The translations under genes were made by a program, and so were the position numbers. From assembly GCA_007376285.1 (NCBI GenBank), contig VMFZ01000004.1, positions 300 to 64,299 on the forward strand: 64,000 nt of DNA, read 5' to 3'. Within the stretch, counting starts at the first letter, position 1. Every line of letters starts with the position of its first letter. This document shows positions 24,458 to 54,860 of the stretch, in pieces. This DNA is from Parcubacteria group bacterium Gr01-1014_17. GTDB taxonomy: Bacteria > Patescibacteriota > Minisyncoccia > Phycocordibacterales > UBA10002. The notes below the pieces were generated by a model. It did not search any database. It saw nothing but the letters and a program-made list of their open reading frames with translations, and was not told the origin of the DNA.

Positions 24458-24492
24458 ACACCCGATGTCTGCAATTTAGACATCAGGTGTCG
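24458..24492. repeat. P element (35-bp palindrome CACC[AC]GATGTCTGCAATTTAGACATC[TA]GGTG)
   Basis: 14-bp arms around a gcaattt loop; further copies are listed below. Confidence 0.8.
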
Positions 24493-24571
24493 TTGGTACA
24501 AGTATTTTGCAAAATACTGAAATACACTATCTCTGGCGACCGCTAGAGATAATGTAGGTATTCGTCTAACT

Positions 24572-24605
24572 ATTCCAATTAACTGCTATAGCAAGTAGTT
24601 GGAAT
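24572..24605. repeat. palindrome C copy 1 (TTCCAATTAACTGCTATAGCAAGTAGTTGGAA), upstream of the helicase
   Basis: related to the perfect 28-bp palindrome at 59283..59316 upstream of clpB. Confidence 0.6.
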
Positions 24606-24879
24606 AGTGACAAAAATCACGGAGGCACCAAATATCTAAATTGAAGACATCTGGCACGAAAGAAAAAGCGGAGGAATGTGCTTTTGCTGAACGGCGAGGA
24701 GCCGAGCGGGCATGGCTTCCGAGTCTGCGAGGAAGAGCGAGGCGAGCGGATAAGGAAAATTTCCTCGCAGGGGAAATAAATGCCTGTCCCCGCCTCATCG
24801 GCGGAGGCGCTATGCATAATCCCCTCCACTACGGTCGGGGTGAAAAGGCAATTATTAGTAATTTTCTACATTTAATTTT

Positions 24880-25989
24880 GTGATTGAAAAAGCAACGGCT
24901 TCAGTGAAGATTAAGAAAGAAGCTAAAAAAGAAAAGGAATCTCCTCACGCAAAAACTCTTGCCGGAATTAAAAACCCTCCGAAAGTAGGAGATCTTGCCG
25001 AGGGCACGGTTATTGCGAATGCGCGCGGTCGCGTCTACATAGACCTGCCGCCTTTTGGCACTGGTGTTATTTATGGCAGAGAATATCTTGCAGCGCGCGA
25101 GATCCTTAAAAAGGTTTCTATCGGGGACTCCGTAACTGCGAAGGTCGTAGAAACAGACAGTAAGCACGGCTACATTGAGCTCTCGCTCAAAGAAGCACGG
25201 CAAGCGATGCTCTGGAGCGAAGCCGAAGCCGCGGCGCGCGAACGCAAACCCTTTGACATTACTGTGAACGAAGCGAACAAGGGCGGCCTCATTATGGAAT
25301 GGCAAGGCATCCAAGGATTCCTCCCCGCCTCCCAGCTCGGAGCCGCCCATTATCCGCGCGTGGAAGACGGCGACAAAGACAAAATTTTGGATGAGCTCAA
25401 AAAACTCGTGGGGCAAAAGCTCACCGTTGCGGTCATCTCCGTGCTTCCCAAAGAAGGTAAGCTTATTTTCTCGGAGAAAGCGCTCACGGAAAAAGACCGC
25501 GCGCAAATGGTCGGCAAGTACAGTATCGGCGATGAGATGGACGGCGCGATTACCGGCGCTGTGGACTTCGGCGTGTTTGTAAAAATTGAGGACGGACTGG
25601 AAGGACTCGTGCATATTTCCGAAATGGATTGGGCACTCGTGGAGAACCCGCGCCTACGCTACAAAACCGGCGATGCGGTGAAGGTGAAGATTATAGACAT
25701 CAAAGACGGTAAAGTGTCGCTCTCTATCAAGGCCTTGAAACCAAACCCATGGATGGATGCGGAGAAGCGTTTCAAGAAAGGCGACCGCGTGCAGGGTGTC
25801 GTCATCAAATACAACAAGTACGGCGCGCTTGCTTCTATTGAAGAAGGAGTCGCTGGACTCGTGCATATCTCGGAGTTTGGCGGAGACGAAACCAAACTTC
25901 GCAATTCGCTTGAACTCGGCAAATCATACACCTTCACCATCACCCTCTTTGAACCCAAAGAACAACGAATGACGCTGTCGTATAAATAA
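24880..25989 (+). CDS. rpsA: 30S ribosomal protein S1 (short, multi-S1-domain)
   Basis: four S1-like repeats (GDLAEGTV..., GQKLTVAVISV..., GDAVKVKIIDI..., GDRVQGVVIK...). Confidence 0.8.
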   Translation: MIEKATASVKIKKEAKKEKESPHAKTLAGIKNPPKVGDLAEGTVIANARGRVYIDLPPFGTGVIYGREYLAAREILKKVSIGDSVTAKVVETDSKHGYIELSLKEARQAMLWSEAEAAARERKPFDITVNEANKGGLIMEWQGIQGFLPASQLGAAHYPRVEDGDKDKILDELKKLVGQKLTVAVISVLPKEGKLIFSEKALTEKDRAQMVGKYSIGDEMDGAITGAVDFGVFVKIEDGLEGLVHISEMDWALVENPRLRYKTGDAVKVKIIDIKDGKVSLSIKALKPNPWMDAEKRFKKGDRVQGVVIKYNKYGALASIEEGVAGLVHISEFGGDETKLRNSLELGKSYTFTITLFEPKEQRMTLSYK

Positions 25990-25994
25990 TAGTG

Positions 25995-26029
25995 GACACC
26001 AGATGTCTGCAATTTAGACATCTGGTGTC
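25995..26029. repeat. P element copy
   Basis: gacaccagatgtctgcaatttagacatctggtgtc immediately after the rpsA stop. Confidence 0.8.
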
Positions 26030-26075
26030 TTTTGCTGTATAGTCAATATCGGAATAGTAAAACGAAAGGACGGTT

Positions 26076-26411
26076 ATGGCCCATATAAGTGAATGTATCT
26101 ACTGCGGACAAGCAATAATAAACGCCGAATGGCACCCGGAGTGTCGGCTCGCACATTTTGAAGACCTGATCGCGCGGATTCAAATACATTTGAGAGGCTC
26201 ACCTGTACAACCGCTTCCATCTGACCTGCAAGAAGAAATCAGAACAGAGCCCGCGAGAACATTCGCGGTGTTTGAAAAAATGCGCCAGCAACGGGAAGAT
26301 AAAACATATAGAAAAGAACGTTGGAAATCGGCACGAGAAGAGCATCTCCGAAAATGCGCTGACCAGTGGGAAAACAAACACCCGGACCCAAACCCAATTG
26401 TTTACGGATAA
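26076..26411 (+). CDS. hypothetical Cys/His-containing small protein, flanked by P elements
   Basis: CIYCGQAI...HPEC possible zinc ribbon; 111 aa. Confidence 0.4.
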   Translation: MAHISECIYCGQAIINAEWHPECRLAHFEDLIARIQIHLRGSPVQPLPSDLQEEIRTEPARTFAVFEKMRQQREDKTYRKERWKSAREEHLRKCADQWENKHPDPNPIVYG

Positions 26412-26430
26412 TTTATCCGCCAAACCAAAC

Positions 26431-26463
26431 ACACCCGATGTCTAAATTGCAGACATCGGGTGT
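26431..26463. repeat. P element copy (inverted loop orientation)
   Basis: acacccgatgtctaaattgcagacatcgggtgt. Confidence 0.8.
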
Positions 26464-26474
26464 TAATTATATTG

Positions 26475-26990
26475 CTAATTAAATTGACTCATTGCTTTTT
26501 CACGGCCGTCGGAAATGATGAACGCAACTGCTTCGTCTATTTTTTTGTGCATCTTTTTGAGTTCGGAAAGCTCCGAGGGTTTGAATTTTCCTAGAATGTG
26601 GTGTTCTACCGCTTCCTCTCCTTTTGGTTTCTTAAGTTTTCCGCTCGGGGTCATCGGAGAAATACCGATGCGAATGCGTACAAACGCCTGGGTCTTAATT
26701 GCTTTTACAATTGACTCCACCCCCCGATGCCCACCCGCGCTTTTGTTGAAAGAAATCTTAAATTTTCCAAACGGCAAGTCCAAGTCGTCGTGAATGACGA
26801 TAAGCTGCTCCGCTTGTTTTGCGCTTTTTATAAGCGGCTTCACCGCATCGCCCGATTTATTCATAAAAGTATCAGGGGTGACGAGTTTTGCGGAGATATC
26901 TTTGAGTGTGGCGACCGCCGCGCGCCCCGCGTTGTGGCGCGTGTTTTCATATTCCGCCCCCGGATTTCCTAAACCGACAATAGTATACAT
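26475..26990 (-). CDS. pth: peptidyl-tRNA hydrolase
   Basis: MYTIVGLGNPGAEYENTRHNAGR. Confidence 0.9.
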   Translation of the reverse strand: MYTIVGLGNPGAEYENTRHNAGRAAVATLKDISAKLVTPDTFMNKSGDAVKPLIKSAKQAEQLIVIHDDLDLPFGKFKISFNKSAGGHRGVESIVKAIKTQAFVRIRIGISPMTPSGKLKKPKGEEAVEHHILGKFKPSELSELKKMHKKIDEAVAFIISDGREKAMSQFN

Positions 26991-27108
26991 ATAAATGTAT
27001 TTCTACCACACTCTTTGCCTGCGCGCCACACCTTTTTTCTCGCCTCTTCGGCGAGTCGTCGATGAGACGACTTGCTACGCGCGCGTGGCGCGATATAATA
27101 GAGAGCAT

Positions 27109-27606
27109 ATGGCGAAGAATTTTTCAGAACTCCTTCGTTTTGCTCTCATTGCCGCCGTAATTGTCATTCCATTTCGCCTCCTAGTTGCCCAACCGTTTCT
27201 CGTGTCCGGCAACTCAATGTTCCCGACCTTCAAAAACAACGACTATCTGATTGTAGACGAACTCACCTACCGATTCCGTGCTCCATTGCACGGCGATGTA
27301 GTTGTCTTTCGCTCGCCCGTTGAACCGAGCAAGTATCTTATCAAAAGAATAATCGGAACCCCGGGCGAGACGATTCGATTTGCGCCTCCAAACGGGCTAT
27401 TCGGGAACAGCGGCTTTTCTTCTGATGTGACCCTGAAAGACGGCGAATACTTTGTTGAAGGCGACAATCGCGCCGAGAGCTTTGACTCGCGCTACTGGGG
27501 AGTTCTCCCGCGCGCGAATATAAAAGGAAGGGCGTTTGTGCGCCTCTGGCCGCTGACAAAAATACAATTCTTGCCGGGCGCGACCACGACCACGCTCGTT
27601 CCTTAA
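27109..27606 (+). CDS. lepB: signal peptidase I
   Basis: GNSMFPTF (Ser box), GDVVVFRSP, FVEGDNRAESFDSRYWG. Confidence 0.85.
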   Translation: MAKNFSELLRFALIAAVIVIPFRLLVAQPFLVSGNSMFPTFKNNDYLIVDELTYRFRAPLHGDVVVFRSPVEPSKYLIKRIIGTPGETIRFAPPNGLFGNSGFSSDVTLKDGEYFVEGDNRAESFDSRYWGVLPRANIKGRAFVRLWPLTKIQFLPGATTTTLVP

Positions 27607-27620
27607 TAACTATTATCTCT

Positions 27621-28796
27621 ATGCACCCAATCGCCCTACCGCCGCCAATTTCGCAATCCGCAACGCGCGCTCCGCGCGCGCTGTCGCGCGCCGCAGGCGT
27701 CGCGCTTCATTATGGCTTCATCCCGACCGAAGCGCTCCGCATTTCCAGAGAGGACCGTGAGAAAGCGCGCGCGCTTATGGAAGAGCCGCACGCGCCGCTC
27801 ACGCCCGCGTACGCGGAAGAAAAAGTTGCGCTCGTTAGATTGTACGACGATGAAAAGATGGACCGCTTGCACCAACCGGCGATGTTTTACCGCGAAGAGC
27901 GCGATAATGCGCGCGGTATGCTCACCGTACACTTGGATGTACTCGGAAGCGCAAAAAGCGTGGTGGAAGCGCTCCTCATTAAAACTACGGTAGAGACCTT
28001 GCGCGAAGCCGGCGTTTCGCGCGCGATGCTCCGAATCAATTCCGTGGGCGACCGTGAGTCGCTTGGAAAATTTATCCGCGAGCTTCAGGGCTTTTACCGC
28101 AAGAAAATTGCCGAACTGCACGCGCCATGCCGCCAAGCGCTCAAAGAAAACATCTTTGCGGCGCTTCTGTGTGAACACGAACACTGCGCCGCGTTCAGAA
28201 GCGATGCGCCGCGCGCGATTGGATTTCTTTCTGAACCAGCGCGCGTGCATTTCAAAGAGGTGTTGGAATACCTGGAACGGATGGAAATCACATACGAACT
28301 GCACGAGCACCTGTTGGGACCAGCCGGTGTCTGTTCGCAGACGGTTTTTGATGTACGCGACGAGAGCGGCGCCCTGCTCGCATCGGGCTTCCGCTATAAC
28401 CACCTTGCCCGCCGACTTGGCGGGCGGCGCGAGGTGCCGGCGCTCGGCGCAACGCTTTTTCTTTCCGGACACACTGTGTTGGCGCGGGCAAAGCGCTTCG
28501 TGCCTATATGCCCGCAAGTGTATTTCATCCAACTTGGACGGGAAGCTAAACTGCGCAGTTTGCACATCATTGAAATGCTACGGCGTGCCGCTGTACCTCT
28601 CGCGCAATCAATCGCACACGACAAACTCTCGGTGCAAATCGCACACGCCGAATCCTTACATATACCCTTTATCGTCATTATGGGGCAAAAAGAAGCGACT
28701 GATGACACTGCGCTCGTGCGCGACCGCGAACGAAGCTTCCAAGAGACATTGCCGATTCCGAAGCTCGCGGTATTTCTCAAACGCTTGCTCGCATAA
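27621..28796 (+). CDS. histidyl-tRNA synthetase-like class II aaRS (divergent; HisRS/HisZ family)
   Basis: HisRS motif 3-like GFRYNHLARRLGGRREVPALGATL, insertion-domain-like LRINSVGDRESL, C-terminal anticodon-binding-like IPFIVIMGQKE. GC is markedly higher than the neighbours. Confidence 0.5.
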   Translation: MHPIALPPPISQSATRAPRALSRAAGVALHYGFIPTEALRISREDREKARALMEEPHAPLTPAYAEEKVALVRLYDDEKMDRLHQPAMFYREERDNARGMLTVHLDVLGSAKSVVEALLIKTTVETLREAGVSRAMLRINSVGDRESLGKFIRELQGFYRKKIAELHAPCRQALKENIFAALLCEHEHCAAFRSDAPRAIGFLSEPARVHFKEVLEYLERMEITYELHEHLLGPAGVCSQTVFDVRDESGALLASGFRYNHLARRLGGRREVPALGATLFLSGHTVLARAKRFVPICPQVYFIQLGREAKLRSLHIIEMLRRAAVPLAQSIAHDKLSVQIAHAESLHIPFIVIMGQKEATDDTALVRDRERSFQETLPIPKLAVFLKRLLA

Positions 28797-28815
28797 CAAA
28801 AAGATGATATCTTGA

Positions 28816-29082
28816 TTGCTCTATATGATGACAAATGCAGAGGTATCGCGAAGCGACGATGAAAATAATATAAGCATCTTGCGCCGCTTTACTAAGCGCG
28901 TGCAGGGTTCGGGCGTCTTGAATCGTGTCCGCTCCATACGGTTTTTTGAGCGCACACCGTCAAAATACAAGCGCAAAGCGCATGCGCTGAAGCGCATCGT
29001 ACGCCGTGACGCGTTTCAAGAGCTTGCGAAACTCGGGAAGGTGAAAGAGGGCGAGTACAAATACAAACGAGGTAAAAAATGA
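28816..29082 (+). CDS. rpsU: 30S ribosomal protein S21
   Basis: LRRFTKRVQGSGVLNRVRSIRFFERTPSKYKRKAHALKR. Confidence 0.75.
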   Translation: MLYMMTNAEVSRSDDENNISILRRFTKRVQGSGVLNRVRSIRFFERTPSKYKRKAHALKRIVRRDAFQELAKLGKVKEGEYKYKRGKK

Positions 29083-29537
29083 GTGGCGATTTCTTAATCG
29101 TAAATCTCACTAAATGCACGACGCTCGGAACGCGGGCGCGTTTTCTGAATATAAAAAATAAAACGGTAGGTAGAGCGTTCTCCATATCTCTCGTCTTTGC
29201 AGGAGCGGCACAAATGCGCCGCTTGAACCGCGCATACCGCAAAAAATCTTACACGCCGAATGTTCTCTCGTTCCGTCTTGCGAAAAATGAAGGGGAAATC
29301 TTTATATGCCCATATGTTGCCGCGCGCGAAGCCCGCGCAGAAGGGGTTGCGCTCTCGGCACGGGTCGCATACCTCGTTATCCACGGTTTACTCCATTTGA
29401 AAGGATACGCGCATGGCGCTACAATGATTAAGTCAGAGGAGCGGCTGTGCAAATCTTTTAAATTGCCGCAACCTGCACATTCTAAATCGTGGCGCAAAAA
29501 ATCTCCTGCGGAATTGATATCGGCACCGACCGCGTAA
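29079..29537 (+). CDS. ybeY: rRNA maturation endoribonuclease YbeY
   Basis: HGLLHLKGYAH metal-binding motif. Confidence 0.8.
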   Translation: MSGDFLIVNLTKCTTLGTRARFLNIKNKTVGRAFSISLVFAGAAQMRRLNRAYRKKSYTPNVLSFRLAKNEGEIFICPYVAAREARAEGVALSARVAYLVIHGLLHLKGYAHGATMIKSEERLCKSFKLPQPAHSKSWRKKSPAELISAPTA

Positions 29538-30658
29538 AAGTGCTCATTATGGAGCAGGGCGTTCCTGTGCCGCATGTTTTGGGTTGCGGCTCTGCGGAAA
29601 GCGGAGGCGTACATCAAGGGTACATAGAGCATCCTGAAGAAACCGCGAATGCCGTGCGCGAGGCACTTTCTGTAGCGGCAAAAGCCGCGGGGGTAATGCC
29701 GCGGCGCGCCACAGTCGGAGCTGGTGGCATTGGGCTATCTTCAGTCACCGCAAACGGCGCTATTGTGGTTTCGCGCGCAGATGCTGAAATTACCGAACTT
29801 GACGCAAGCAAAGCAGTTGAGACGAGCCGCATTTCAATTCCGACATCTCTTCTTCAAAATAGGCGCATAATCCATACGACACCGCTCCAATACAAAGTTG
29901 ATGGAAAATCCGTGCCTACCTCCCCAGTCGGTTTTAAGGGCGCGAAGCTTGAAGTGCGTACATTTTTCGTTACCTGCATGGAACAACATCTTGAGAATCT
30001 TTTTGAAGCAGTGGAAACCGCGGGTATTGCCATAGAAGATGTGGTTGCAACACCGCTCGCGGCAAGTACCGCAACAATAACCCGCGCGCAAAAAGCCGCA
30101 GGAGTCGTGCTTGCGAACATCGGCTCAGAAACCGTGTCTATCGCAGTGTTTGAAAACGGATTGCCTGTTTCAATTGAAGTGTTTCCAGTAGGAAGCGTTA
30201 ATGTAACAAACGACATTGCGCTCGGGCTACGCATTCCTTTGGAAGAAGCCGAAAGCGTGAAGCGCGGGGCGATTATCGGCGCTTCGTTTCCGCAGAAAAA
30301 ACTTGATGAGATTATTGCGGCGCGGCTCACAGATATTTTTGAACTGATTGAAGCGCATCTTAAAAAAATGGGGCGAAGCGGTCTTCTCCCCGCAGGGGTC
30401 GTGCTCACCGGCGGCGGCTCGGCGCTTGCAACAATTGATGACCTTGCAAAAGCGGCGCTTAGGTTACCTGCGCGCATTGCGTCTGCAATTACCGGAGAAA
30501 GCGGAAAGAGCCAAATAAAAGACGCGAGTTGGTCCGTTGCCTACGGGCTTGCAGCAATGGGGCTCCAAGACGCGGCGCGCGGGCTTCCTTTGGGCATTGA
30601 AACCGCGCGCCGCGCCAAGCACACAGTGGTGGGGTGGTTTAAGCAATTTTTGCCGTAA
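29489..30658 (+). CDS. ftsA: cell division protein FtsA
   Basis: actin-like ISCGIDIGTDRVKVLIME; 389 aa. Confidence 0.9.
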   Translation: MAQKISCGIDIGTDRVKVLIMEQGVPVPHVLGCGSAESGGVHQGYIEHPEETANAVREALSVAAKAAGVMPRRATVGAGGIGLSSVTANGAIVVSRADAEITELDASKAVETSRISIPTSLLQNRRIIHTTPLQYKVDGKSVPTSPVGFKGAKLEVRTFFVTCMEQHLENLFEAVETAGIAIEDVVATPLAASTATITRAQKAAGVVLANIGSETVSIAVFENGLPVSIEVFPVGSVNVTNDIALGLRIPLEEAESVKRGAIIGASFPQKKLDEIIAARLTDIFELIEAHLKKMGRSGLLPAGVVLTGGGSALATIDDLAKAALRLPARIASAITGESGKSQIKDASWSVAYGLAAMGLQDAARGLPLGIETARRAKHTVVGWFKQFLP

Positions 30659-30838
30659 GAGCCGCTCGCATAGCTCCCGTGTCCGAACACGCATACCCGC
30701 CGCCAGCGCGGCGGGTTGCTCTGCTCGGCTCGGCGTTGTCAAGAGCCCTCGCTTCGCTCGGGTCGTTGACAAACCGTGCCGCCTCGCCTCCGCAAGGTCG
30801 CGGACACGGGACTATGCTCGCTTTTGTTTTCATTTCCG
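30659..30838. repeat. MITE-like element R copy 1 (~180 bp with ~22-bp terminal inverted repeats GCTCGCATAGCTCCCGTGTCCG / CGGACACGGGACTATGCTCGC)
   Basis: starts at the ftsA stop; ~95% identical to 33041..33228. Confidence 0.75.
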
Positions 30839-30873
30839 GCACCAGATGTCTGCAATTTAGACATCTGGTGCCT
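30839..30873. repeat. P element copy
   Basis: ggcaccagatgtctgcaatttagacatctggtgcc. Confidence 0.8.
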
Positions 30874-31026
30874 CGGGAGACACCCTGCCCGCTCGGCTCC
30901 TCGCCCGCCCGTACCGAATGGTACATTCGGGCGGGCCGTTCCGCAAAAGCACATTCCTCACTCTGTTTTTTTCACCATCTGTACATACAGACATTTTGCA
31001 AAATGTTTGTATAAAACAGGCAAAAG

Positions 31027-31058
31027 AAAACCCGCGACCGTTTGACGGTCGCGGGTAG
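31027..31058 (-). terminator. hairpin cccgcgaccg-tttga-cggtcgcggg downstream of the minus-strand gene 31076..31732
   Basis: 10-bp GC stem; A-tract on the plus strand equals a U-tract on the minus strand. Confidence 0.6.
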
Positions 31059-31075
31059 GATTGAATGTGAAGAAA

Positions 31076-31732
31076 TCATGCTTTCCGCTTCTGCTCGTAG
31101 CCGGGTTCTTCCCAAACCTCAACATAATATTCCTCTCCATCTCCCCGGACAACCAAGAATGGATCCCTCTGCACTTTCTCCACGATCATCTCGTCGATGA
31201 AAAAAGTTGCACCGCACACGCGCTGGTGAATCTCTTTGGCGGTAGCCAATGCGAATCCGGGTACAGGACCGCTATACTCCTTGAGTGGAGTAATTTTCCA
31301 GAACGCCCTGTCTTTAGTAGACATGGAGCACACGAGAATGATGAACAGAACGACAAACATGGCGACGAAACCGGAAGCACAAACTGAACTAATCGTCTTG
31401 ACCAAGCCAGCATCATTTGAGACAAAGATTATTGAACTTGCAACCGCCAAAACGATAGATACTCCAAAAAACTTAAACAGCGGAATTAATCTGTTGTCGT
31501 CCCCGAATTTCTTTATCTGCTCTTCTTTGTATTTCCGCACCGAATCGTGACTGAATGGAGTGATACCGGCAATACGCAATGCACATGCAAGCGACCCCTC
31601 CTTGCAGAGTTTTTCTTTTTGAGGATGGTGGTAGCCCAATTGTTCGTGGGCATAGTCCAAGACATCCTGTGTCATGGCTTCTTCTGGATCAATTTTTGGC
31701 AAAGAACGCCGTTCGAGTGTGGTAGTATTCAT
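31076..31732 (-). CDS. hypothetical membrane protein inserted between ftsA and ftsZ on the opposite strand
   Basis: 218 aa with two hydrophobic helices in the middle; no recognised domain. Confidence 0.5.
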   Translation of the reverse strand: MNTTTLERRSLPKIDPEEAMTQDVLDYAHEQLGYHHPQKEKLCKEGSLACALRIAGITPFSHDSVRKYKEEQIKKFGDDNRLIPLFKFFGVSIVLAVASSIIFVSNDAGLVKTISSVCASGFVAMFVVLFIILVCSMSTKDRAFWKITPLKEYSGPVPGFALATAKEIHQRVCGATFFIDEMIVEKVQRDPFLVVRGDGEEYYVEVWEEPGYEQKRKA

Positions 31733-31884: not shown

Positions 31885-33039
31885 ATGCCTTTAATTACAC
31901 CGGATGTAGAAGCGTTTGCGCGGATAAAAGTGTTCGGTATCGGCGGCTCGGGCAAAAATGCCTTGAACCATATGATCAACTCCAAGGTCAAAGGAGTTGA
32001 GTTTGTCGCAATCAACACAGACGCGCAAGACCTGCATAACACGCTCGCCAAAAAGAAAATCCATATTGGAAAGAATGTTACGCGCGGGTTGGGCGCCGGT
32101 ATGAATCCTGAAGTGGGCAAGCGCGCCGTTGAAGAAACGAAAGAAGAAATACAGGAAGCGACGAAAGGCGCGGATATGGTGTTCATTGCTGGCGGGCTCG
32201 GCGGCGGCACTTTCAGCGGCGCCGCGCCCATGGTAGCCAAAACCGCGAAAGAACTCGGTGCGCTTACTGTCGCGGTAACGACTAAGCCGTTCTTTTTTGA
32301 GGGCTCGCAGAGAATGAAAATTGCGGAGCAGTGGCTTGAAGAACTCCGTAAGAGCGTTGACGCAATTATTATCATTCCGAATGACCGCTTGCTCGCTTCC
32401 ATCACCAAAGACACGACCGCCAAAGCCGCGTTCGGCACCTGCGACGAAGTGCTCCGGCAAGCCGTGGAAGGAATTTCTGACTTGATTACTACGCCGGGTA
32501 TTATCAACTTGGACTTTGCAGATATTCGTGCGATTTTGGAAAATGCTGGCTCGGCGCTTATGGGCATAGGGAGCGCAACCGGCGACAAACGCGCCGAGGA
32601 AGCCGCGAAAGCCGCCATCAATTCCCCGCTTCTTGAAGTGTCCATCAACGGCGCGAAGGGCGTGCTCTTCTCTATTGCGGGCGGCGACGACCTCACGATG
32701 TTTGAAATACAAGAGGCCGCAAAGATTATTACGGAATCAATAGACCCGAATGCCAAAGTGATTTTCGGCACCATCCGCGATGAAAAGCTAAAGAAAGGCG
32801 AAATTAAAATTACAGTCATTGCATCTGGCTTTCCAGAAAGCGCACTGCCGCGCAAATCGCTTTTTACCGGACTTATGAATAGCGGCGCAGACGACGACAA
32901 GCGCGGGAAGCAGAACACGGTTTCTGCATCTGCTTCCATTATTACCAAAGAAACAAAGTCGGACGAGAAAAAAGGGTCCGCTAGCGAAGACGACGACTGG
33001 GGTTCTGTGCCTGCGTTTCTAAGACGGGCGAAGAAGTAA
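31885..33039 (+). CDS. ftsZ: cell division protein FtsZ
   Basis: GGGTGSG-like GLGGGTFSGAAP, NTDAQDL, tubulin signature. Confidence 0.95.
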   Translation: MPLITPDVEAFARIKVFGIGGSGKNALNHMINSKVKGVEFVAINTDAQDLHNTLAKKKIHIGKNVTRGLGAGMNPEVGKRAVEETKEEIQEATKGADMVFIAGGLGGGTFSGAAPMVAKTAKELGALTVAVTTKPFFFEGSQRMKIAEQWLEELRKSVDAIIIIPNDRLLASITKDTTAKAAFGTCDEVLRQAVEGISDLITTPGIINLDFADIRAILENAGSALMGIGSATGDKRAEEAAKAAINSPLLEVSINGAKGVLFSIAGGDDLTMFEIQEAAKIITESIDPNAKVIFGTIRDEKLKKGEIKITVIASGFPESALPRKSLFTGLMNSGADDDKRGKQNTVSASASIITKETKSDEKKGSASEDDDWGSVPAFLRRAKK

Positions 33040-33040
33040 A

Positions 33041-33228
33041 GGGCGCTCGCATAGCTCCCGTGTCCGAACACGCATACCCGCCGCCAGCGCGGCGAGTTGC
33101 TCTGCTCGGCTCGGCGTTGTCAAGAGCCCTCGTCCGCCTAAGGTGGACTCGGGTCGTTGACAAACCGTGCCGCCTCGCCTCCGCAAGGTCGCGGACACGG
33201 GACTATGCTCGCTTGCGTTTTTCTTTCT
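33041..33228. repeat. MITE-like element R copy 2
   Basis: same TIRs; carries a 16-bp extra apical segment relative to copy 1. Confidence 0.75.
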
Positions 33229-33263
33229 GGCACCAGATGTCTGCAATTTAGACATCTGGTGCC
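33229..33263. repeat. P element copy
   Basis: ggcaccagatgtctgcaatttagacatctggtgcc. Confidence 0.8.
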
Positions 33264-33334
33264 TCTCTATCCAAGTATTTTGCAAAATATTTGTAGGGAC
33301 TAATTCGTGAGAATTAGAGAATAGACAAAGAAAA

Positions 33335-47739: not shown

Positions 47740-47853
47740 ATGGAGAATATTGATGTAAATAATGCATTGGTTAATTTCTATCTCATTGGCGCAGTACTTG
47801 CGATCATGTTTATTTCTTTTGGCATTTATATAAAAGGAAAAAGTAAAAAATAA
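47740..47853 (+). CDS. 37-aa hydrophobic peptide
   Basis: MENIDVNNALVNFYLIGAVLAIMFISFGIYIKGKSKK; not in the ORF track (below 60 aa). Confidence 0.3.
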   Translation: MENIDVNNALVNFYLIGAVLAIMFISFGIYIKGKSKK

Positions 47854-47856
47854 ATT

Positions 47857-47937
47857 ATGACAAAACTATACATTCTTTATGGTCTAATGGCTATCGCTAT
47901 TGTTCTACTCGTTATTTTGGCGAGAAAAAGCAGATAG
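47857..47937 (+). CDS. 26-aa hydrophobic peptide
   Basis: MTKLYILYGLMAIAIVLLVILARKSR; 4 nt after the previous stop. Confidence 0.3.
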   Translation: MTKLYILYGLMAIAIVLLVILARKSR

Positions 47938-47978
47938 ATAAAAAGAAAACCAGCGGCCATTTTTGGTTGCCGATGTGA

Positions 47979-48992
47979 TTAAACCGTAAAATTGCGGACG
48001 GAGTAGAGGGTTTCTTCGTCTTCTTGTGGTTCCACTGGTATAGGAGGAATCGCGACTGGCGGCTCGCCTTCTTCGCCATTTTCTTGGGCTACCGGCGGCT
48101 TTTCTGCTTTCATGCGCGCAAGATGGCGGTCAATCATTTCGGATGGGCTTCGCTTTTCTTTTGATTCAAGCATCGCCAAAATGGCGAGCAGGTCGTCTGT
48201 TGAAAAGAAGTCAATCAGAATTTTGCCACCGGTTTCGCGCTTCAAGATATGCACGCGCGTTCCGAGAGATTCGCGGAGTTTGCCTTCAATTACCACGAGC
48301 TCCGGGTCTATGGCGACATCTTTCTTCCGCGCGCGGTCAACCGCAATCTTGCGTGCCGTTTCCTCCGCCTCGCGTACCGTGATTTTCTTCACCGAGATTT
48401 CCTTAAACAAAACCAGCTGCTCTTCTGGGCGGTCTACCAACATCAAAAGAGGTCGAGTGTGCCCTTCGTTTATAACGCCGCTTGAGACAGCATCCAGAAT
48501 CTCATCGGGTAAATCCAAAATCCGCATCGTGTTGGTCACATACACGCGGCTTTTGCCAACACGCGTGCCGATTTCGTGGTGTTTGAAGCCGAAGTCCTCG
48601 GCGAGCCGCTTGAACGCGCGTGCGCGCTCCACGGCGTTCAAGTCCTCGCGCTGGAGGTTTTCTATAATTGAAATCTCAAGCTTTTCGCGGTCGCTGTTTT
48701 CCCCCGCGCGGATTAAGACCGGCACATGAGGAAGCCCAACAAGTTTTGATGCGCGCAAACGACGCTCACCCGCTAAAAGCTCGTACTCCACGGCAATGCC
48801 GCCGTCATCTTTCGCTGTTTCTTTCCGCGTGACGACAAGTGGCTGAAGTACGCCGTATGCGCGGATGGATTCGGAAAGGTCGCGTAGTTTCTCGGGGTCA
48901 AACTCGCGGCGCGGCTGAAACGGGTTCGGCTTTATCTTGTCCGTCTCAATCCAAAATATCGCATTGTTCTGAAAACTTTCTGCTAGATTCAT
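47979..48992 (-). CDS. parB: chromosome partitioning protein ParB/Spo0J with Pro/Glu-rich C-terminal extension
   Basis: GVLQPLVV, ELLAGERRLRAS ParB box. Confidence 0.85.
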   Translation of the reverse strand: MNLAESFQNNAIFWIETDKIKPNPFQPRREFDPEKLRDLSESIRAYGVLQPLVVTRKETAKDDGGIAVEYELLAGERRLRASKLVGLPHVPVLIRAGENSDREKLEISIIENLQREDLNAVERARAFKRLAEDFGFKHHEIGTRVGKSRVYVTNTMRILDLPDEILDAVSSGVINEGHTRPLLMLVDRPEEQLVLFKEISVKKITVREAEETARKIAVDRARKKDVAIDPELVVIEGKLRESLGTRVHILKRETGGKILIDFFSTDDLLAILAMLESKEKRSPSEMIDRHLARMKAEKPPVAQENGEEGEPPVAIPPIPVEPQEDEETLYSVRNFTV

Positions 48993-49061
48993 AAGATAAT
49001 AAGCAGTATAGCATACGAAGAAAAAAAGACAGGGGAATAAAATTGTGTATAATTGCGGTAC

Positions 49062-49145
49062 GCCGGAGTGGCGGAATCGGCAGACGCACGGGACTCAAAA
49101 TCCCGCGATGGCAACATCATGAGAGTTCGACTCTCTCCTCCGGCA
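49062..49145 (+). tRNA. tRNA-Leu (CAA), class II
   Basis: acceptor GCCGGAG/CUCCGGC, A73, anticodon loop CUCAAAA, long variable arm. Confidence 0.85.
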
Positions 49146-49170
49146 ATTTTGTTTTTATAAACCATACTTC

Positions 49171-50073
49171 ATGAATCTTGAATCTAAGATTCTAGTCATT
49201 GTTGGACCGACTGCGAGCGGGAAAAGCGCGCTCGCGGTTACGCTCGCGCGCCGATTCAGAGGCGAAGTGATTTCCGCCGATTCACGACAAGTGTATCGTG
49301 GGCTCGATGTCGGTACAGGAAAAATCACAAAAAAAGAAATGCGCGGCGTCCACCACCATTTGCTTGATATCGCGAACCCGAAAAAGCAATTCACGGTTGC
49401 AGAATATAAGAAGCTCGCCCGAGAAAAGATCTCCCAGATTCAATCGCGCAACAAAATTCCCATCATCTGCGGTGGCACTGGTCTTTATATTGATGCGCTT
49501 CTTGGAAATATCGCCATCCCAGAAGTACCTCCAAACCTCGCACTCCGCAAAAAACTAGAGAGAAAGACGGCCCCTGAATTGTTCGCTCTGCTCCAAATGT
49601 TCGACCCACAACGCGCAAAAACCATTGACCAGCACAACCCGCGACGACTTATTCGCGCGATTGAAATTATAAAAGCCATTGGTTCTGTCACTCCATCACA
49701 ACATACCAACATTCTGCAGAATATGAGAATGATTGGCCTCATACTCCCACCAGCAGAACTCAAAAAGAAAATATCTAGGCGCTTATTCGTGAGAATTAGA
49801 GAATATAAGATGATACAAGAAGTCCGAGAGTTGCACCGGAAAGGATTGTCGTGGAAACGGATGGAATCGCTAGGGCTTGAGTACCGCTACCTTTCCCGCT
49901 ATTTACGCGGCTTCCTTACTAAAACAGAAATGATTGAGAAACTCAAAACCGAAATCTGGCGCTACGCAAAACGGCAGATGGTGTGGTTCAAGCGGAATAA
50001 AGAAATAAAATGGTTTACACCAAAAGAACAAAGAAAAATATTTTCTGCAGTTCAAGTGTTTTTGTGTCAATAA
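49171..50073 (+). CDS. miaA: tRNA dimethylallyltransferase
   Basis: ILVIVGPTASGKSALAV, ISADSRQVYRGLDVGTGK. Confidence 0.9.
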   Translation: MNLESKILVIVGPTASGKSALAVTLARRFRGEVISADSRQVYRGLDVGTGKITKKEMRGVHHHLLDIANPKKQFTVAEYKKLAREKISQIQSRNKIPIICGGTGLYIDALLGNIAIPEVPPNLALRKKLERKTAPELFALLQMFDPQRAKTIDQHNPRRLIRAIEIIKAIGSVTPSQHTNILQNMRMIGLILPPAELKKKISRRLFVRIREYKMIQEVRELHRKGLSWKRMESLGLEYRYLSRYLRGFLTKTEMIEKLKTEIWRYAKRQMVWFKRNKEIKWFTPKEQRKIFSAVQVFLCQ

Positions 50074-50127
50074 ACCAGTTTTTCTATCTTACTTGCAAGT
50101 AAGATATGGCTTTCAGGTGAACTAAAC

Positions 50128-50922
50128 TTAATTTTTATTAAAAGAATCCTGTATAGATTTGACGACAACTGATACAAAGTTACTTACGGGAAAATCCTTT
50201 ACATCAAGCAAAGAAAGATATGGACACCAATCCTCAATTTCTAATAGAAGTATTTTATTTGTGTATGTTTTCAAGAAGTCAATTCTTTGAATACCAGTCA
50301 TAGGATTCCACTCAACGAATTGATAAGCCAAAGAAGACTCTTCCGCAGTTGGGAAATATAATTCTAAATCCCATCGCCCACCTTTTGTTTTGAGCGCGTG
50401 ATGAAAATTATTATCTATAAAAAAGAAAGAAATCTCAGAGGCGAATTTTATCTTTGGCTGAATGATATATTTTTTGGCGTCAAAGTATTGTTTGAGGTGG
50501 TTTGTCGGAACAGATACGATTCCTTTTCCGCTTCCACTATAAATTGGTTTCAGGAGGTATTCTTTTGAATCCTGTCGCAAAGCTTTTTCATAGTTATTGA
50601 ATGATGGGACAACTTGATATTTTGTATTATACAATTTTACAAGATATCGTTTTCCTTTTTGATCCCCCATTCCAATAAATCGATTGTTGTGATATATATT
50701 TCTTCTAGAAAAGTTGTGATAGATTTTGAGCATGCGTTCCGAGCCGTTAAAACACCCCCATACATTCCTTATTAAGAAAAAAGAGTTCTTGGAAAATATG
50801 GAATCGTCAAAGAGATCTAAAACTTCTGTTCGAAAATATTTATCCAGGAGCTTAGCCAAAGCAATATCCTCAGATCTAGAATCCTTATTCTTCAGGTTAG
50901 AGATAATGGTTACATTCTCCAT
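50128..50922 (-). CDS. ATP-grasp-like hypothetical protein (AT-rich, probably acquired)
   Basis: KPIYSGSGKGIVSV, IIQPKIKFASE, LLLEIEDWCPY resemble ATP-grasp motifs. Confidence 0.45.
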   Translation of the reverse strand: MENVTIISNLKNKDSRSEDIALAKLLDKYFRTEVLDLFDDSIFSKNSFFLIRNVWGCFNGSERMLKIYHNFSRRNIYHNNRFIGMGDQKGKRYLVKLYNTKYQVVPSFNNYEKALRQDSKEYLLKPIYSGSGKGIVSVPTNHLKQYFDAKKYIIQPKIKFASEISFFFIDNNFHHALKTKGGRWDLELYFPTAEESSLAYQFVEWNPMTGIQRIDFLKTYTNKILLLEIEDWCPYLSLLDVKDFPVSNFVSVVVKSIQDSFNKN

Positions 50923-50973
50923 GTGAATATTTTCTCTTAAACTCTCATTAAGAGAGTAGGTATGACATCTTGA

Positions 50974-51044
50974 CGGGCCCAGCAGGACTCGAACCTGCAG
51001 TCACGGATTTGGAGTCCGTTGGTTTGCCATTAACCGATGGGCCC
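50974..51044 (-). tRNA. tRNA-Trp (CCA)
   Basis: acceptor GGGCCCA/UGGGCCC, G73, anticodon loop CUCCAAA. Confidence 0.85.
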
Positions 51045-51698
51045 ATATTTTTCTAAAAATGCGGTCGCAGTCATTAAAAGCCGTTTGGCAAGATCGTTGC
51101 TATGATACCGAAGCGACAAACATCCTGGATAATCTTTTTTAATTCGCTTACCGGTATGCGGTTTGCGATACGGTTTAATGAATTGCCCCCTATCTATATT
51201 AGTTACTTTTGACCAAAACGCAATTTGTTTCTCAGCATCATGGTATTCGTGCAAATGTATACAAAGACGAAATTTCTTTTCATCGAGCGGAAACGAGTGT
51301 CGCAAGAGTGTGAGGAATGTCTTAATTAATTTTGGATCAGAATTTGTAAAGCAAGTCCCTTTTGAGATACTTTTGAGCCCTTCGCACCAATATAATAAAG
51401 CACATATAATTCGCTCCACGGAAATATCATTAATTTTCGGAAGAGTTGTCGAAGCTTGTTCTTTATACCGCAGAAGCAAATCTTGAGTTCTTTGTCGTTT
51501 TCTTTCAGCCGAAAGAACTTGACCTAATTTTATTTTTGTCAGCAGTCGCTTCCGCGCTTTATCTGACATTGTAACATTTCTTACCCATGTTGAAACCGAA
51601 CTCTTCGCAACCGCAACTCTCCTAACAATTTCATTTACAGAAAAACCTTTTTCTCGGAGACGAATAGACTGCAATCGTTCTTTAATTTTCAGTTTCAT
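51030..51698 (-). CDS. hypothetical protein with N-terminal HTH (AT-rich); last 5 codons overlap the 5' end of tRNA-Trp
   Basis: KGFSVNEIVRRVAVAKSSVSTWVRN HTH; C-terminal ...YGPIG is encoded by the tRNA acceptor stem. Confidence 0.5.
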   Translation of the reverse strand: MKLKIKERLQSIRLREKGFSVNEIVRRVAVAKSSVSTWVRNVTMSDKARKRLLTKIKLGQVLSAERKRQRTQDLLLRYKEQASTTLPKINDISVERIICALLYWCEGLKSISKGTCFTNSDPKLIKTFLTLLRHSFPLDEKKFRLCIHLHEYHDAEKQIAFWSKVTNIDRGQFIKPYRKPHTGKRIKKDYPGCLSLRYHSNDLAKRLLMTATAFLEKYGPIG

Positions 51699-52102
51699 AA
51701 AAACTAAAAGATAAGTTATATAACCTATACTACCAGTCCATACGAATACAACAAGAAAAAATGGGGATAACTTCCCCATTTTCTACTTTTTCGTCTCTTT
51801 GTGCTTCGTGCGCTTGCGGCATCCCATAGGACAAGCATACGGGACAGGCCAATTGCAAATTATTTCTTGGTTTCCTTATGTTCCGTCCGGACTTTGCACC
51901 AACGACAAAATTTCCTGAGCGTTATCTTGCGCTCCACTTTTTTCTTGTTTTTCTCGCTCCAGTAGTTTATGCGCTTGCACGAAGCGCACGCGAGTTTGAT
52001 TAACCTATCCTGACTCATAATTAAAACATCATAGCGCACTTTTATAAAAAAGAAAAGCCCCGACTCGCTTTCACGAATCGGGACTGTGTATCAAACTAAA
52101 CC

Positions 52103-53173
52103 CTAACTTTTCCCGCCGCTGTCTCTACTGAACGACTGCTGGCGTTTTCCGAAGGTCGGCCAGTCAATGATGATGTCGTAGATGCCTGACACCAACTCAA
52201 TGGTGGAGTAAAGACCGCTTACGATTGGAACATAAGTCCAAGAAGTTGCCGATGTCGATGAGACACGAATCCAAAATCCCTTTGCAACACCATCGCTTGG
52301 ATGTTCGGCGTAGAAAGAGAGAGGTAGTGTTTTAGTGAATCTGATTTGCACTAAAGGCGACACTCCGTTATTGAACGCGCGAGCAACCTGCTCGTCAACT
52401 CTGTTTACCGTAACCGAATTGATGTCCGGCTTGACCACAATCACACCCTCCAATGTCGCCGATGTGGTAACCGACCGCCCGAGTATCGGCTGTCTCGCGC
52501 CTGTTTGCGCCGAGTATACCGCTTTGACGGTAATTCCGTCTTCGCGATTGTCAAACGCCATAATGAGAACATTTTTCTGTCCCGCGAGATATACGGGAAA
52601 CAAGAAATTTCCGGTCCTCTGGTCTCGGTCAAGCGAACGGGTCTCCGTCGTCTCCCCTTGTTCATTCAAGAGAGCAACTTCAGCCCAATCCGCACCAGCG
52701 ATTTCCAAAGGCAAATCGCCAGCCGGCCACATCCGCACTTTGATTTCTGTGGTTGGCGAAGCGTAATTACCGTCAGATTGCTTTACTAACTTGAACGACT
52801 GGTTCCCTTGGAACAACTCCCGCCCACCCTTGTCGCGGAACGCGACTCGCACCTCAATCGGGTCCAACGGGTTCCTCGTCTCAAACGAGAAATTCGCGGT
52901 TGAGACAATGGCGAGTAACTCGCCGAAGTCGGGCTGGTTCGGCACCGACGGCACATACCCTTTTTCAAGGTAGGTAACCGTCCCGGGCGTTCCATACACG
53001 AACCCACGCGAGTTCACATTCACCGTAACCTTCGTTACGAGTCGCTTTGCGTTCGCGATAAGCACCTCCGGAGAGGTAATCGGGAGCGTGGACGGGAGGT
53101 CAACTGGCTGGGCGAACACTGACGCCGACACGAACAACAACATTGCTGAGAAAACTGACATTTCCGTTTTCAT
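52103..53173 (-). CDS. hypothetical secreted protein
   Basis: signal peptide MKTEMSVFSAMLLFVSASVFAQP; 356 aa. Confidence 0.5.
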   Translation of the reverse strand: MKTEMSVFSAMLLFVSASVFAQPVDLPSTLPITSPEVLIANAKRLVTKVTVNVNSRGFVYGTPGTVTYLEKGYVPSVPNQPDFGELLAIVSTANFSFETRNPLDPIEVRVAFRDKGGRELFQGNQSFKLVKQSDGNYASPTTEIKVRMWPAGDLPLEIAGADWAEVALLNEQGETTETRSLDRDQRTGNFLFPVYLAGQKNVLIMAFDNREDGITVKAVYSAQTGARQPILGRSVTTSATLEGVIVVKPDINSVTVNRVDEQVARAFNNGVSPLVQIRFTKTLPLSFYAEHPSDGVAKGFWIRVSSTSATSWTYVPIVSGLYSTIELVSGIYDIIIDWPTFGKRQQSFSRDSGGKS

Positions 53174-53209
53174 TTTTTTCTTTCTTTCTAGTTTTTGGTT
53201 TTTCTTGTT

Positions 53210-53476
53210 TTACTGACTTTTTGCTGAGGACTGCACAACAGGGCTAACTCGAAAGCTCACCCGATATGTTTTCTGTTCCGCGCGAACAGGCGCCGAAACA
53301 GCTTGTTCCGATACCACGGCGGCGGGCTTTTTGGCACGCCAGTCGTGGTATTTGTTGACACTGAACAGCGCAATATTTAACAGAATAAGCGCCACGAGAA
53401 TGTAACCGAACTTTCTCATAGGTTTTAAGTTTTTAACTGACAACGAACTGTTTGAAACGAAAAAAGGTCCTACCAC
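53210..53476 (-). CDS. hypothetical small membrane protein
   Basis: 88 aa, one TM. Confidence 0.35.
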   Translation of the reverse strand: MVGPFFVSNSSLSVKNLKPMRKFGYILVALILLNIALFSVNKYHDWRAKKPAAVVSEQAVSAPVRAEQKTYRVSFRVSPVVQSSAKSQ

Positions 53477-53533
53477 AAGGTAGAATCAACCCTTTCTCGA
53501 CTGTCGTACAGTATACACGACTTTGACTATATG

Positions 53534-54697
53534 TCAAATATAAATCCTTTTTATGAGCGGGTTCAGGCGCGTAACCACCTCGTACCACGAGCTGTCGGTG
53601 ATAAGTGAAATGCCTTCGGCAGACGCCGGTGATTTTTGATTTTTCGTAATAATCACAACCTCATCTCCGACGCGCAGATTTTTTATTTTACTTACATCTA
53701 CCGTCAGCATATCCATAGAAACGCGGCCTACTACTTTACATTCTTTCCCTTGTATCAGCACGCGGCCGATTGACGACAGCGCGCGTGAGTAGCCATGCCA
53801 ATAGCCGATTGGAATAATAGCGAGCGTCGTATCTTCTTGAAGCATCTCCGCAAAATCGTAGCCAACGCGCGCGCCTCTCGGAAGCTTTTTTATTTCGCTT
53901 ACGATTGATTTCCATTCAAGTGCCGGACGGAGCGTAATTTTATCTTTCAGAAACTCCCGCACTTCGCGTGCAGGCCACAACCCATAGAGCCCAATGCCGA
54001 TACGCACCATATCATAGTGCGTTTCTGGAAAGAGCATTGTGCTCGCGGTTGCTGCGGCGTGAACGAGCGGCTTTAACCCCGCTTTTTTGAACGCTATAAT
54101 CCATTGTTCAAACTCCGCGATTTGAGCGCGGGTATCTTTTGGAAACGCGGGATTTTTCGCATTTGCAAAGTGCGTATATAACCCTTGAAGCTGGACACTG
54201 GATGCTGCCTGCCCGCCGATTGGCAGGCGGGGATGCTGGAAAGACAAAAGAACTCTCGGAAGGTCGCCTTTCAAAAATCCTTGGCGGTGCATCCCCGTAT
54301 CAACTTTAATATGAATCTTTAACGGTTTTGAGAGTTCTGCTTTTTTAAGCGTATCAAATATTTCAAAGGAAGAAACCGTAAGAGAAATATCATTTTGAGC
54401 CGCCTCGGCAAAAAGCTCCGGCATAGTGTAACCGAGAACGAGAATCGGAATCTTGATTCCTTCGCGTCGAAGCGAGCGTGCTTCGGTTATGGAATCAACA
54501 CCAAGAAAATCCGCGCCGAGCCGTTCCATTTCTCGCGAAAAATCCACGAGCCCGTGCCCGTAAGCATTGCTCTTCACTACCGCCATCAGTTTTGTCTTTT
54601 TCGGAATAAGCCCGCGGAAAATGCCAAAATTATGTTTAATCGCCTTTTGGTCAACTTCAATCCAAGTACGGAGGCCTTCTCGTTCTGATATAGACAT
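53534..54697 (-). CDS. alr: alanine racemase
   Basis: PLP site AVVKSNAYGHG; start taken at MSISERE, adjacent to tRNA-Tyr. Confidence 0.9.
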   Translation of the reverse strand: MSISEREGLRTWIEVDQKAIKHNFGIFRGLIPKKTKLMAVVKSNAYGHGLVDFSREMERLGADFLGVDSITEARSLRREGIKIPILVLGYTMPELFAEAAQNDISLTVSSFEIFDTLKKAELSKPLKIHIKVDTGMHRQGFLKGDLPRVLLSFQHPRLPIGGQAASSVQLQGLYTHFANAKNPAFPKDTRAQIAEFEQWIIAFKKAGLKPLVHAAATASTMLFPETHYDMVRIGIGLYGLWPAREVREFLKDKITLRPALEWKSIVSEIKKLPRGARVGYDFAEMLQEDTTLAIIPIGYWHGYSRALSSIGRVLIQGKECKVVGRVSMDMLTVDVSKIKNLRVGDEVVIITKNQKSPASAEGISLITDSSWYEVVTRLNPLIKRIYI

Positions 54698-54700
54698 AAA

Positions 54701-54783
54701 TGCGCCGGGGTGGACTCGAACCACCGATGCCCAATGGGCGGGAGATTTACAGTCTCCTGGAATGGCCGCTATCCGACCGGCGC
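54701..54783 (-). tRNA. tRNA-Tyr (GUA), class II
   Basis: acceptor GCGCCGG/CCGGCGC, anticodon loop CUGUAAA, long variable arm. Confidence 0.85.
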
Positions 54784-54829
54784 GACAGAAAGATAATAGC
54801 AGATTTTTTCCAAATAGGGAACACAAAAA

Positions 54830-54860
54830 CACCAGATGTCTGAATTGCAGACATCTGGCG
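54830..54860. repeat. P element variant
   Basis: caccagatgtctgaattgcagacatctggcg followed by ttttttt. Confidence 0.75.

Follow-up and report, generated by a model that had tools for sequence, protein, structure and literature searches.

Short dispersed hairpin repeats between and within genes of Parcubacteria

The genomes of the Candidate Phyla Radiation (CPR), or Patescibacteria, are regarded as streamlined. Here we analyse a very short hairpin repeat in one of them, Parcubacteria group bacterium Gr01-1014_17, based on a stretch of 64,000 nucleotides (GenBank assembly GCA_007376285.1, contig VMFZ01000004.1, positions 300 to 64,299 of the forward strand) that is called the window throughout. 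Hairpins that serve as substrates of single-strand transposition are known from the ends of IS200/IS605 elements and from PATE derivatives. The kind of repeat discussed here is also known already, namely REP-like stem-loop repeats (REP, repetitive extragenic palindrome) with occasional in-frame copies: intragenic copies are documented for REP-like families, untagged ones included (Di Nocera et al. 2013, PMC3733652), and the passages on Rickettsia palindromic elements (RPE) in two papers document copies lying in frame in Rickettsia (PMC3733652, PMC10969869). In full-text literature searches no description of REP-like repeats in CPR/Patescibacteria was found. On the whole, we consider that the present element, named the P element in a preliminary description of the window, is probably the type A subfamily of a superfamily of very short non-autonomous palindromic repeats in Parcubacteria/CPR, which would be REP- or RPE-like and selfish. 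The data fit such a superfamily: identical units are found at unrelated sites and in different genomes, the expansion is lineage-specific, and an intergenic bias goes together with a tolerated in-frame class.

A pattern search of the window for CACCMGATGTCTGCAATTTAGACATCWGGTG, with up to 2 mismatches allowed, finds seven matches of type A (CACCMGATGTCTGCAATTTAGACATCKGGTG), at 24459, 25997, 26432 (minus strand), 30840, 33231, 44340 and 54830 (minus strand), while 100 dinucleotide-preserving shuffles of the window give 0, showing that the dispersed hairpin first described there is real. Two copies with divergent loops, placed by the same description at 38693 and 39905, are confirmed as well: they have the same arms with other centres, at 38696-38728 (type C, GATGT-TGATGGGCTTCAA-ACATC, the centre being TGATGGGCTTCAA) and at 39906-39938 (type B, with centre TGATAGGCGGCAA). 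A tenth copy, at 24626-24655, is a decayed type A. By folding, the window copies have stems of 14-18 bp and a loop of 5-7 nt (GCAATTT), with energies of -20 to -30 kcal/mol and z of -5 to -9. Since each copy folds as a stem with an asymmetric loop, the element is an inverted repeat around that loop and not the perfect palindrome for which it had been taken; moreover, copy 24459 has one C.A mismatch in its stem, and copy 54830 has two mismatches, which are G.U pairs on the minus strand. The element can be defined by inverted arms of 13-14 bp, [R][A/G]CACC[C/A]GATGT[T/C], flanking a subfamily-specific centre of 9-15 nt. The outer stem varies among copies with its complementarity kept (GACACC/GGTGTC, GGCACC/GGTGCC and ACACCACC/GGTGGTGT), and two arm variants, ACACCC/GGGTGT and GCACCA/TGGTGC, are each found with every centre type. 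Pairing fades past about 14 bp, which gives units of 34-37 nt, with 35 nt for type A, in an overall range of 31-37 bp. Between its arm ends type A measures 31 nt, a length not divisible by three, and contains TAG or TAA in two of the six frames.

The preliminary description had left room for a local duplication confined to the window, and this is not what we find. The 21-nt core of type A is present in Candidatus Taylorbacteria RIFCSPLOWO2_01_FULL_48_100, in 'bin.65' (five copies) and in two metagenome-assembled genomes labelled Saccharibacteria, and types B and C adjoin type A in some loci of these assemblies. One contig labelled 'Saccharibacteria' (L003) is syntenic with the window at 72-82% nucleotide identity, so that its label may be unreliable. 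A metagenome scan in which only the arms were fixed (CACCMGATGT-N9-15-ACATCKGGTG) matches at least 120 contigs, and in 0.9 Mb of collected DNA there are 137 distinct hairpins, with conserved arms and very diverse centres. The stem continues beyond the search-fixed arms in 110 of the 137 copies, as against about 6% expected by chance. In the 51 copies having a 13-nt centre, the stem positions outside the fixed ones covary: pair 6/40 is AU in 34 copies, GC in 11 and CG in 2, pair 5/41 is GC in 18, AU in 16 and CG in 7, and pair 11/35 is CG in 37 and AU in 13. Among these 51 copies 85.8% of cells are paired, compared with 30-42% when the partners are slid, and the covariation score is 0.268 versus 0.108 in shuffles, a value reached by 0 of 500 shuffles and by no slid control.

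The variable spacer of 9-15 nt and the compensatory stem changes speak for a hairpin, and not a duplex operator, as what is recognised or selected. A palindromic operator, that is, a site in duplex DNA for a dimeric protein such as a global regulator or a nucleoid protein, would also explain conserved inverted arms around a variable spacer, and the right half of type A does look like a -35 box, and at 17 nt downstream of it there are -10-like hexamers (26015-26043 and 44358-44386); we nevertheless hold it to be very improbable, because spacers of such different lengths shift the helical phase of the half-sites, the compensatory changes keep pairing rather than sequence, most copies are at 3' ends rather than promoters, and dozens of them lie inside housekeeping open reading frames (ORFs). 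Paired uptake sequences are known to form terminators in Neisseria. In a lineage thought to be DNA-scavenging, the arms could on this precedent be DNA uptake sequences arranged as inverted pairs, like those in the terminators of Neisseria and Pasteurellaceae. The probability of this is close to negligible in our view, since single arms are not enriched: GATGTCT is found only 3 times outside hairpins, exact solo 10-nt arms number 0, with only 3 one-mismatch matches per arm, and the density is far under that of known uptake sequences.

It is of interest that copies are also found inside genes, a placement that the preliminary description overlooked for the hairpin at 38693 and for its relatives in many housekeeping genes. 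This type C hairpin (38693..38731, plus strand) lies in frame inside tsaD (37915-39060) and encodes PTPDVDGLQTSGVV, P-T-P-D-V-D-G-L-Q-T-S-G-V-V, at about residues 260-273. In the closest TsaD homologs, P0002 and P0004, only QTSGVV or HTSGVV is left, and in the DNA of P0002 (locus L009) the retained right arm reads CAG ACA TCG GGT GTC GTT. The homolog P0003 and others have no element and show an unrelated PSEQIK at the site, and in P0005 and P0007 the element occupies this site, with a second copy elsewhere in the protein. The solved TsaD structure 8iey is 12 residues shorter at the position of the insert. In the AlphaFold model, whose mean predicted local distance difference test (pLDDT) score is 90.6, the insert is a coil with pLDDT around 55, located between helices 243-256 and 271-299. 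Family-wide, 46 of the 137 hairpins are within long ORFs, and 32 of these share one reading frame, xPDV...TSGx (p = 6e-7), the peptide being mostly TPDV-x3-4-TSGV. Centres of 10 or 13 nt, which make the unit a multiple of three, account for 76% of the ORF copies versus 47% of the intergenic ones, and type A is intergenic in 24 of its 25 copies. Nine host ORFs were examined, and their Pfam matches are UvrD/PcrA-type helicases, rRNA adenine dimethylase (KsgA), Mg-chelatase-like ATPase (ComM), LigA, MurB, a CCA/poly(A)-polymerase-family enzyme, ribosomal protein S16, trigger factor and SOD. The subfamilies of 30 or 33 nt, being multiples of three, also persist inside housekeeping genes, as surface loops. 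At a second site of TsaD (alignment columns 280-305), the homologs P0006, P0008, P0009 and P0014 carry other palindrome-like inserts (NPPPNPPPL.KEGG.GGGF; SAFCKTSPPIQSELNGHTPTPVLQN), and these peptides, differing between lineages, suggest that there are further in-frame repeat families.

Comparison among relatives shows that orthologous sites hold a full element in some cases, and in others half of one, none or a different one. Two syntenic relatives, L010 and L011, have no such hairpin over 21 kb of 75-80% nucleotide identity. After hsp20, type A is present in the window, in locus L083 a type C lies further downstream, and nothing is found in L012; in L083 (3420-3680), a partial duplicate of the hsp20 3' end precedes the type C hairpin. 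Between the gene for a 516-aa protein and tRNA-Tyr, type A is present in both the window and L004 with inverted loops, in a spacer that has otherwise diverged, and the arm variant differs between the two, with A-T versus C-G at stem position 5. These data bear on the explanation that the hairpin is a non-mobile functional RNA, such as a 3' stabiliser or processing signal of mRNA, whose arms are invariant because a conserved host protein binds them. Such a role would agree with arms that are identical among genomes whose proteins are only 50-80% identical, with two copies located directly before tRNA genes, and with mismatches in copy 54830 that become G.U pairs on the transcribed strand. We find it quite unlikely, given that close relatives differ in whether they have the element and that a remnant of half an element is found, that both orientations occur and one copy is in a divergent promoter region, and that the frame bias of the ORF copies points to selection on the peptide rather than on an RNA signal. 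Besides, a search of Rfam, at the gathering threshold and at E of 1 or below, matches only tRNAs and none of the hairpins.

For the superfamily of selfish palindromic repeats, we propose by analogy with REP/RAYT (REP-associated tyrosine transposase) and IS200/IS605 that copies may spread by copy-and-paste as single-strand hairpins, through a putative trans-acting activity, and that selection would then filter the sites where they persist. Going further, the repeats might form a distinct ultra-short selfish class of the CPR, which would be built of modules, the 13-bp arms being invariant and the centres interchangeable, would spread by a single-strand or hairpin-templated process that keeps the arms symmetrical and flips the loop, and would routinely colonise essential genes in frame with neither an encoded nor an adjacent transposase; we put this forward tentatively, as a possibility with the odds against it. 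If true, the class would be a recurrent source of new surface loops in the proteins of reduced genomes.

Several observations weigh against selfish spread. Exact type A cores number only 2-5 in the relatives, and hairpins at orthologous positions in diverged spacers would also fit a host function. No transposase or recurrent gene is found beside the hairpins in the 0.9 Mb of collected DNA. No target-site duplication is seen by inspection, the flanking dinucleotides not being direct repeats. Of 134 copies, 2 have GTAG no more than 10 nt from the stem, with none among the window copies, and 7 have a CGTC head at a fixed offset; these 7 belong to one metagenomic subtype (CGTCAACACCC...), and the head is absent from types A, B and C. 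As the nearest relative compared is only about 80% identical, we infer mobility and its mechanism rather than observe them. An all-against-all BLAST of 87 hairpin-adjacent ORFs gives no family of more than 2 members; the pairs resemble Frr, RecR and methyltransferases by reading of their sequences, no family search having been run on them. The only window gene bracketed by two copies is ORF 26076-26411. The preliminary description saw in this pair a possible cassette; the pair is real, with opposed loops, and the cassette role finds no support, since the gene has no HUH motif and no recurrent gene family is bracketed by hairpins. A RAYT-like role was considered for the same ORF and rejected, its product being a CxxC...HxxC protein of 111 aa with no Pfam match; judged from its residues, this product is a small zinc-ribbon-like protein and not an HUH enzyme.

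We then present the copies of the window in their genomic context. The window is a bacterial chromosome segment of Parcubacteria (CPR) with a reduced gene set, including genes for an AddA-like helicase-nuclease, an S1 protein, Pth, LepB, FtsA, FtsZ, TrxB, TsaD, a short ValS, LepA, ParB and Alr, together with ten scattered tRNAs. The TsaD encoded here matches a protein recorded for Parcubacteria group bacterium Gr01-1014_17 at 100% identity, and an exact look-up of the FtsZ protein gives no record. A phage origin was rejected: megablast of 22 kb against phage records gives no match, and the genes are chromosomal housekeeping genes. The search of a viral collection gives one match only, probably incidental. 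Of the nine intact hairpins, eight are in non-coding DNA, which makes up 8.6% of the window (p ~3e-8), a strong intergenic enrichment that bears out the earlier view of a REP-like dispersed family. The clustering of all copies in 24-55 kb is largely accounted for by the 61% of the window's intergenic bases that this zone has. Most copies had been placed directly after stop codons; this holds for four of the nine (25997, 26432, 44340 and 54830, at 6-27 nt), and not for the other five, of which two (30838 and 33229) are about 185 nt past ftsA and ftsZ, each closing a 220-nt repeat, one is about 160 nt past a DUF3800 gene, one is between divergent genes, and one is inside tsaD.

The four copies near stops are also those followed by T-tracts. 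Copy 2 of type A (25994..26030, plus strand, -26.3 kcal/mol) begins 5 nt past the S1-domain gene's stop codon (gene at 24880-25989) and, with TTTGCTG after it, is terminator-like. Copy 3 (26431..26463, minus strand, -23.9 kcal/mol), with its loop inverted relative to copy 2, is between the convergent ORF 26076-26411 (plus strand) and pth (26475-26990, minus strand), with T-rich tails on both strands. Copy 8 (44335..44375, plus strand, -30.4 kcal/mol) has an 18-bp stem, stands 17 nt past the hsp20 stop, and is followed by a terminator-like TTTTTG, ending 20 nt before tRNA-Phe. Copy 9 (54826..54864, minus strand, -25.3 kcal/mol), whose loop reads GCAATTC on the minus strand, is 10 nt past the 516-aa gene (54875-56425, minus strand) and before tRNA-Tyr, with T-runs on both strands. 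In such copies, the transcript would end in a hairpin of 14-18 bp followed by a U-tract and may act as an intrinsic terminator, the copies from 25994, 26431, 44335 and 54826 being perhaps co-opted; copies having no U-tract would serve as a 3' stabiliser or barrier. The sigma-70-like flags mentioned above consist of TAGACA, the right half of type A, then 17 nt, then TATAGT or TAAGAT. At copy 2 the hexamer is TATAGT, promoter-like for ORF 26076, and between the end of the flagged site at 44358-44386 and tRNA-Phe there are 10 nt, so that a -35 box may be supplied by some of the copies.

The remaining window copies have other surroundings. Copy 1 (24455..24493, plus strand, -24.2 kcal/mol, z -7.0), with the stem ACGACACCCGATGTCT/AGACATCAGGTGTCGT and one C.A mismatch, lies between the divergent helicase-nuclease and S1 genes and has no T-tract. 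According to the preliminary description one copy is read into the N-terminus of the helicase, which proves to be an overlap of only 3 nt, and this with an upstream GTG; the Pfam helicase domain begins at residue 24, and an in-frame ATG is 11 codons further in. Copy 4 (30838..30872, plus strand, -27.7 kcal/mol) is the 3' end of a structured 220-nt repeat (30655-30874) downstream of ftsA, again with no T-tract, and its site is kept in the syntenic locus L003. Copy 5 (33229..33263, plus strand, -27.5 kcal/mol) closes the second 220-nt repeat (33036-33265) at its 3' end, downstream of ftsZ, and has no T-tract either. A segmental duplication was rejected as the source of these two (matches 30840 and 33231), because the neighbouring convergent genes are not paralogs and only the 220-nt repeat is shared. 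The decayed type A copy (24626..24655), reading GCCAGATGTCTTCAATTTAGATATTTGGTG on the minus strand, terminates a diverged inverted copy of this repeat (24622-24775). The type B hairpin (39905..39939, plus strand, centre TGATAGGCGGCAA, -20.3 kcal/mol) is intergenic, just upstream of a T5orf172/GIY-YIG fragment ORF, within an island (39117-40826) that is absent from the relative L012.

With these data, one may ask whether the element exists for termination, in other words whether its copies are bona fide intrinsic (Rho-independent) terminators that share their sequence through duplication or convergent selection. The four copies with stop and T-tract support this, as do a terminator scan that flags three sites (25994-26030, 26431-26463 and 54832-54858), hairpin energies of -24 to -30 kcal/mol, and the conservation in L004 of the site after the 516-aa gene. 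The earlier observation of T-tracts after several copies is likewise correct, for four of the seven type A copies, whereas none follows 24459, 30840 and 33231, the first of which is even between divergent genes. Family-wide, the T enrichment after the stem is weak (3.2 versus a background of 2.7 per 10 nt), and at least 6 T in 10 nt is found in 15% of the intergenic copies, an equal fraction to that of the ORF copies. The orientation of the loop relative to the upstream gene, and so to transcription, is mixed, sister types with the same arms are inside essential genes, and ordinary unique terminators are also present in the genome (31056-31030, 33365-33332 and 52085-52056). The explanation by termination as such is therefore unlikely. 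The terminator role proposed in the preliminary description stands for the four copies with T-tract, where it is plausible from the sequence, and is not supported for the three lacking one; it is not a property of the family.

Besides the hairpins, the window shows several other small repeats. The two 220-nt repeats behind ftsA and ftsZ are 96% identical, and the repeat folds with a long closing stem and three internal hairpins (-121.7 kcal/mol, z -8.2), the type A hairpin being at the end; other copies are the diverged inverted one at 24622-24775 and those at L003:480-760 and L008:2950-3112. This could be a repeat of composite or nested build, or else a small gene for a structured RNA with the hairpin as its 3' end. 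A second mini repeat, a double hairpin (CCGCCGCTTCGGCGGGTCGCCGATGAGGCGA), is found at 21724-21754, 27040-27070 and 38321-38351, in all cases inside ORFs (helicase, lepB and tsaD), and in TsaD it matches an 18-residue insert relative to 8iey and a coil of lower confidence in the model. A near-perfect 32-bp palindrome, ACATTCTCACnTTCTTAAGAAnGTGAGAATGT, occurs at 15057-15098, 15676-15717 and 15985-16026 around the genes at 15077-15971, with a weaker copy at 49695-49736, and looks from its sequence like an operator. An 18-bp palindrome, AGTGTTTTGCAAAACACT / AGTATTTTGCAAAATACT, is present at 13879-13928, 14195-14244, 24477-24526 and 33250-33299, two of these copies being just downstream of type A hairpins 1 and 5, and a long palindrome, ACTATTCCAAnTAnnTGCTATAGCAAGTAGTTGGAATAGT, is present at 24569-24616 and 59276-59323. 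In the spacer between the helicase and S1 genes (24430-24880), four different palindromic repeats are piled up. The island between tsaD and valS (39117-40826) includes, together with the type B hairpin, a DUF3800 protein, a 61-aa T5orf172/GIY-YIG-like fragment and two unknown ORFs, and at the same position in L009 (3328-4059) a stand-alone Cas1-family gene of 243 aa overlaps the end of tsaD.

These results would mean that even genomes under 1 Mb keep micro-repeats, selfish or co-opted, in a family that punctuates operons and is also written in frame into tsaD, ligA, murB, uvrD and rpsP, and that is a possible source of some unexplained short insertions in CPR proteins. The arms, CACCMGATGT...ACATCKGGTG, give a simple marker for tracking lineages and insertion dynamics in metagenomes, and the hairpin is a natural candidate for a compact terminator module in organisms for which genetic tools are lacking.

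Finally, we compare the element with the known systems. CRISPR arrays consist of regularly spaced direct repeats, whereas the window copies are 435 to 11,109 nt apart in mixed orientation, with genes between them. Miniature inverted-repeat transposable elements, or MITEs, have a length of 70-300 bp with target-site duplications, as against units below 40 bp whose flanks are not direct repeats. With IS200/IS605 the element shares the hairpin as recognisable unit, the lack of target duplication and the occurrence in both orientations; no TnpA (Y1 HUH) gene or conserved cleavage motif is identified for it, so that the analogy is one of mechanism only. SPRITE is similar in being a repeated terminator-like hairpin after genes that is clustered or nested with other small repeats (PMC10969869), and differs in that its T-tract is part of the element, whereas the CPR element has a T-tract in a minority of copies. 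The CGTC-tagged REPs have stems of 8-9 bp opening with two A-T pairs and a CCA tail, unlike the CPR stems of 13-14 bp with no CCA tail. The comparison with RPE, whose sequence families are RPE-1 to RPE-10, is made by description, on length and heads. According to the passages on RPE (Ogata et al. 2000, summarised in PMC10969869 and PMC3733652), both are palindromic repeats that lie in frame in many unrelated housekeeping genes as a tolerated peptide, with intergenic copies too, and no transposase is known for RPE. The same passages give RPEs as about 100-150 bp long and only in Rickettsia, while the CPR unit is 31-37 bp, or about 11-14 residues, and they give a CGTC head for RPE-4 and RPE-6, which in the CPR element is limited to the one metagenomic subtype. 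The likeness to REP is in 20-40 bp dispersed hairpins that for the most part follow ORFs and lie between genes in tandem or convergent order, in subfamilies differing in stem or loop, in occasional intragenic copies, including those in replication and repair genes, and in proposed roles in termination and mRNA stabilisation (PMC3733652). In contrast to REP, the CPR element lacks the GTAG head and has no RAYT or REPtron found beside its hairpins, its stems are longer (13-18 bp), its host belongs to the CPR, and its arms are conserved across divergent lineages, classical REPs being largely species-specific. Notable in the CPR family are the very small size of the units, the colonisation of essential genes in a streamlined genome, arms that stay invariant across divergent lineages, centres that are modular, and a sharp split between a type that is only intergenic and types that are read in frame.

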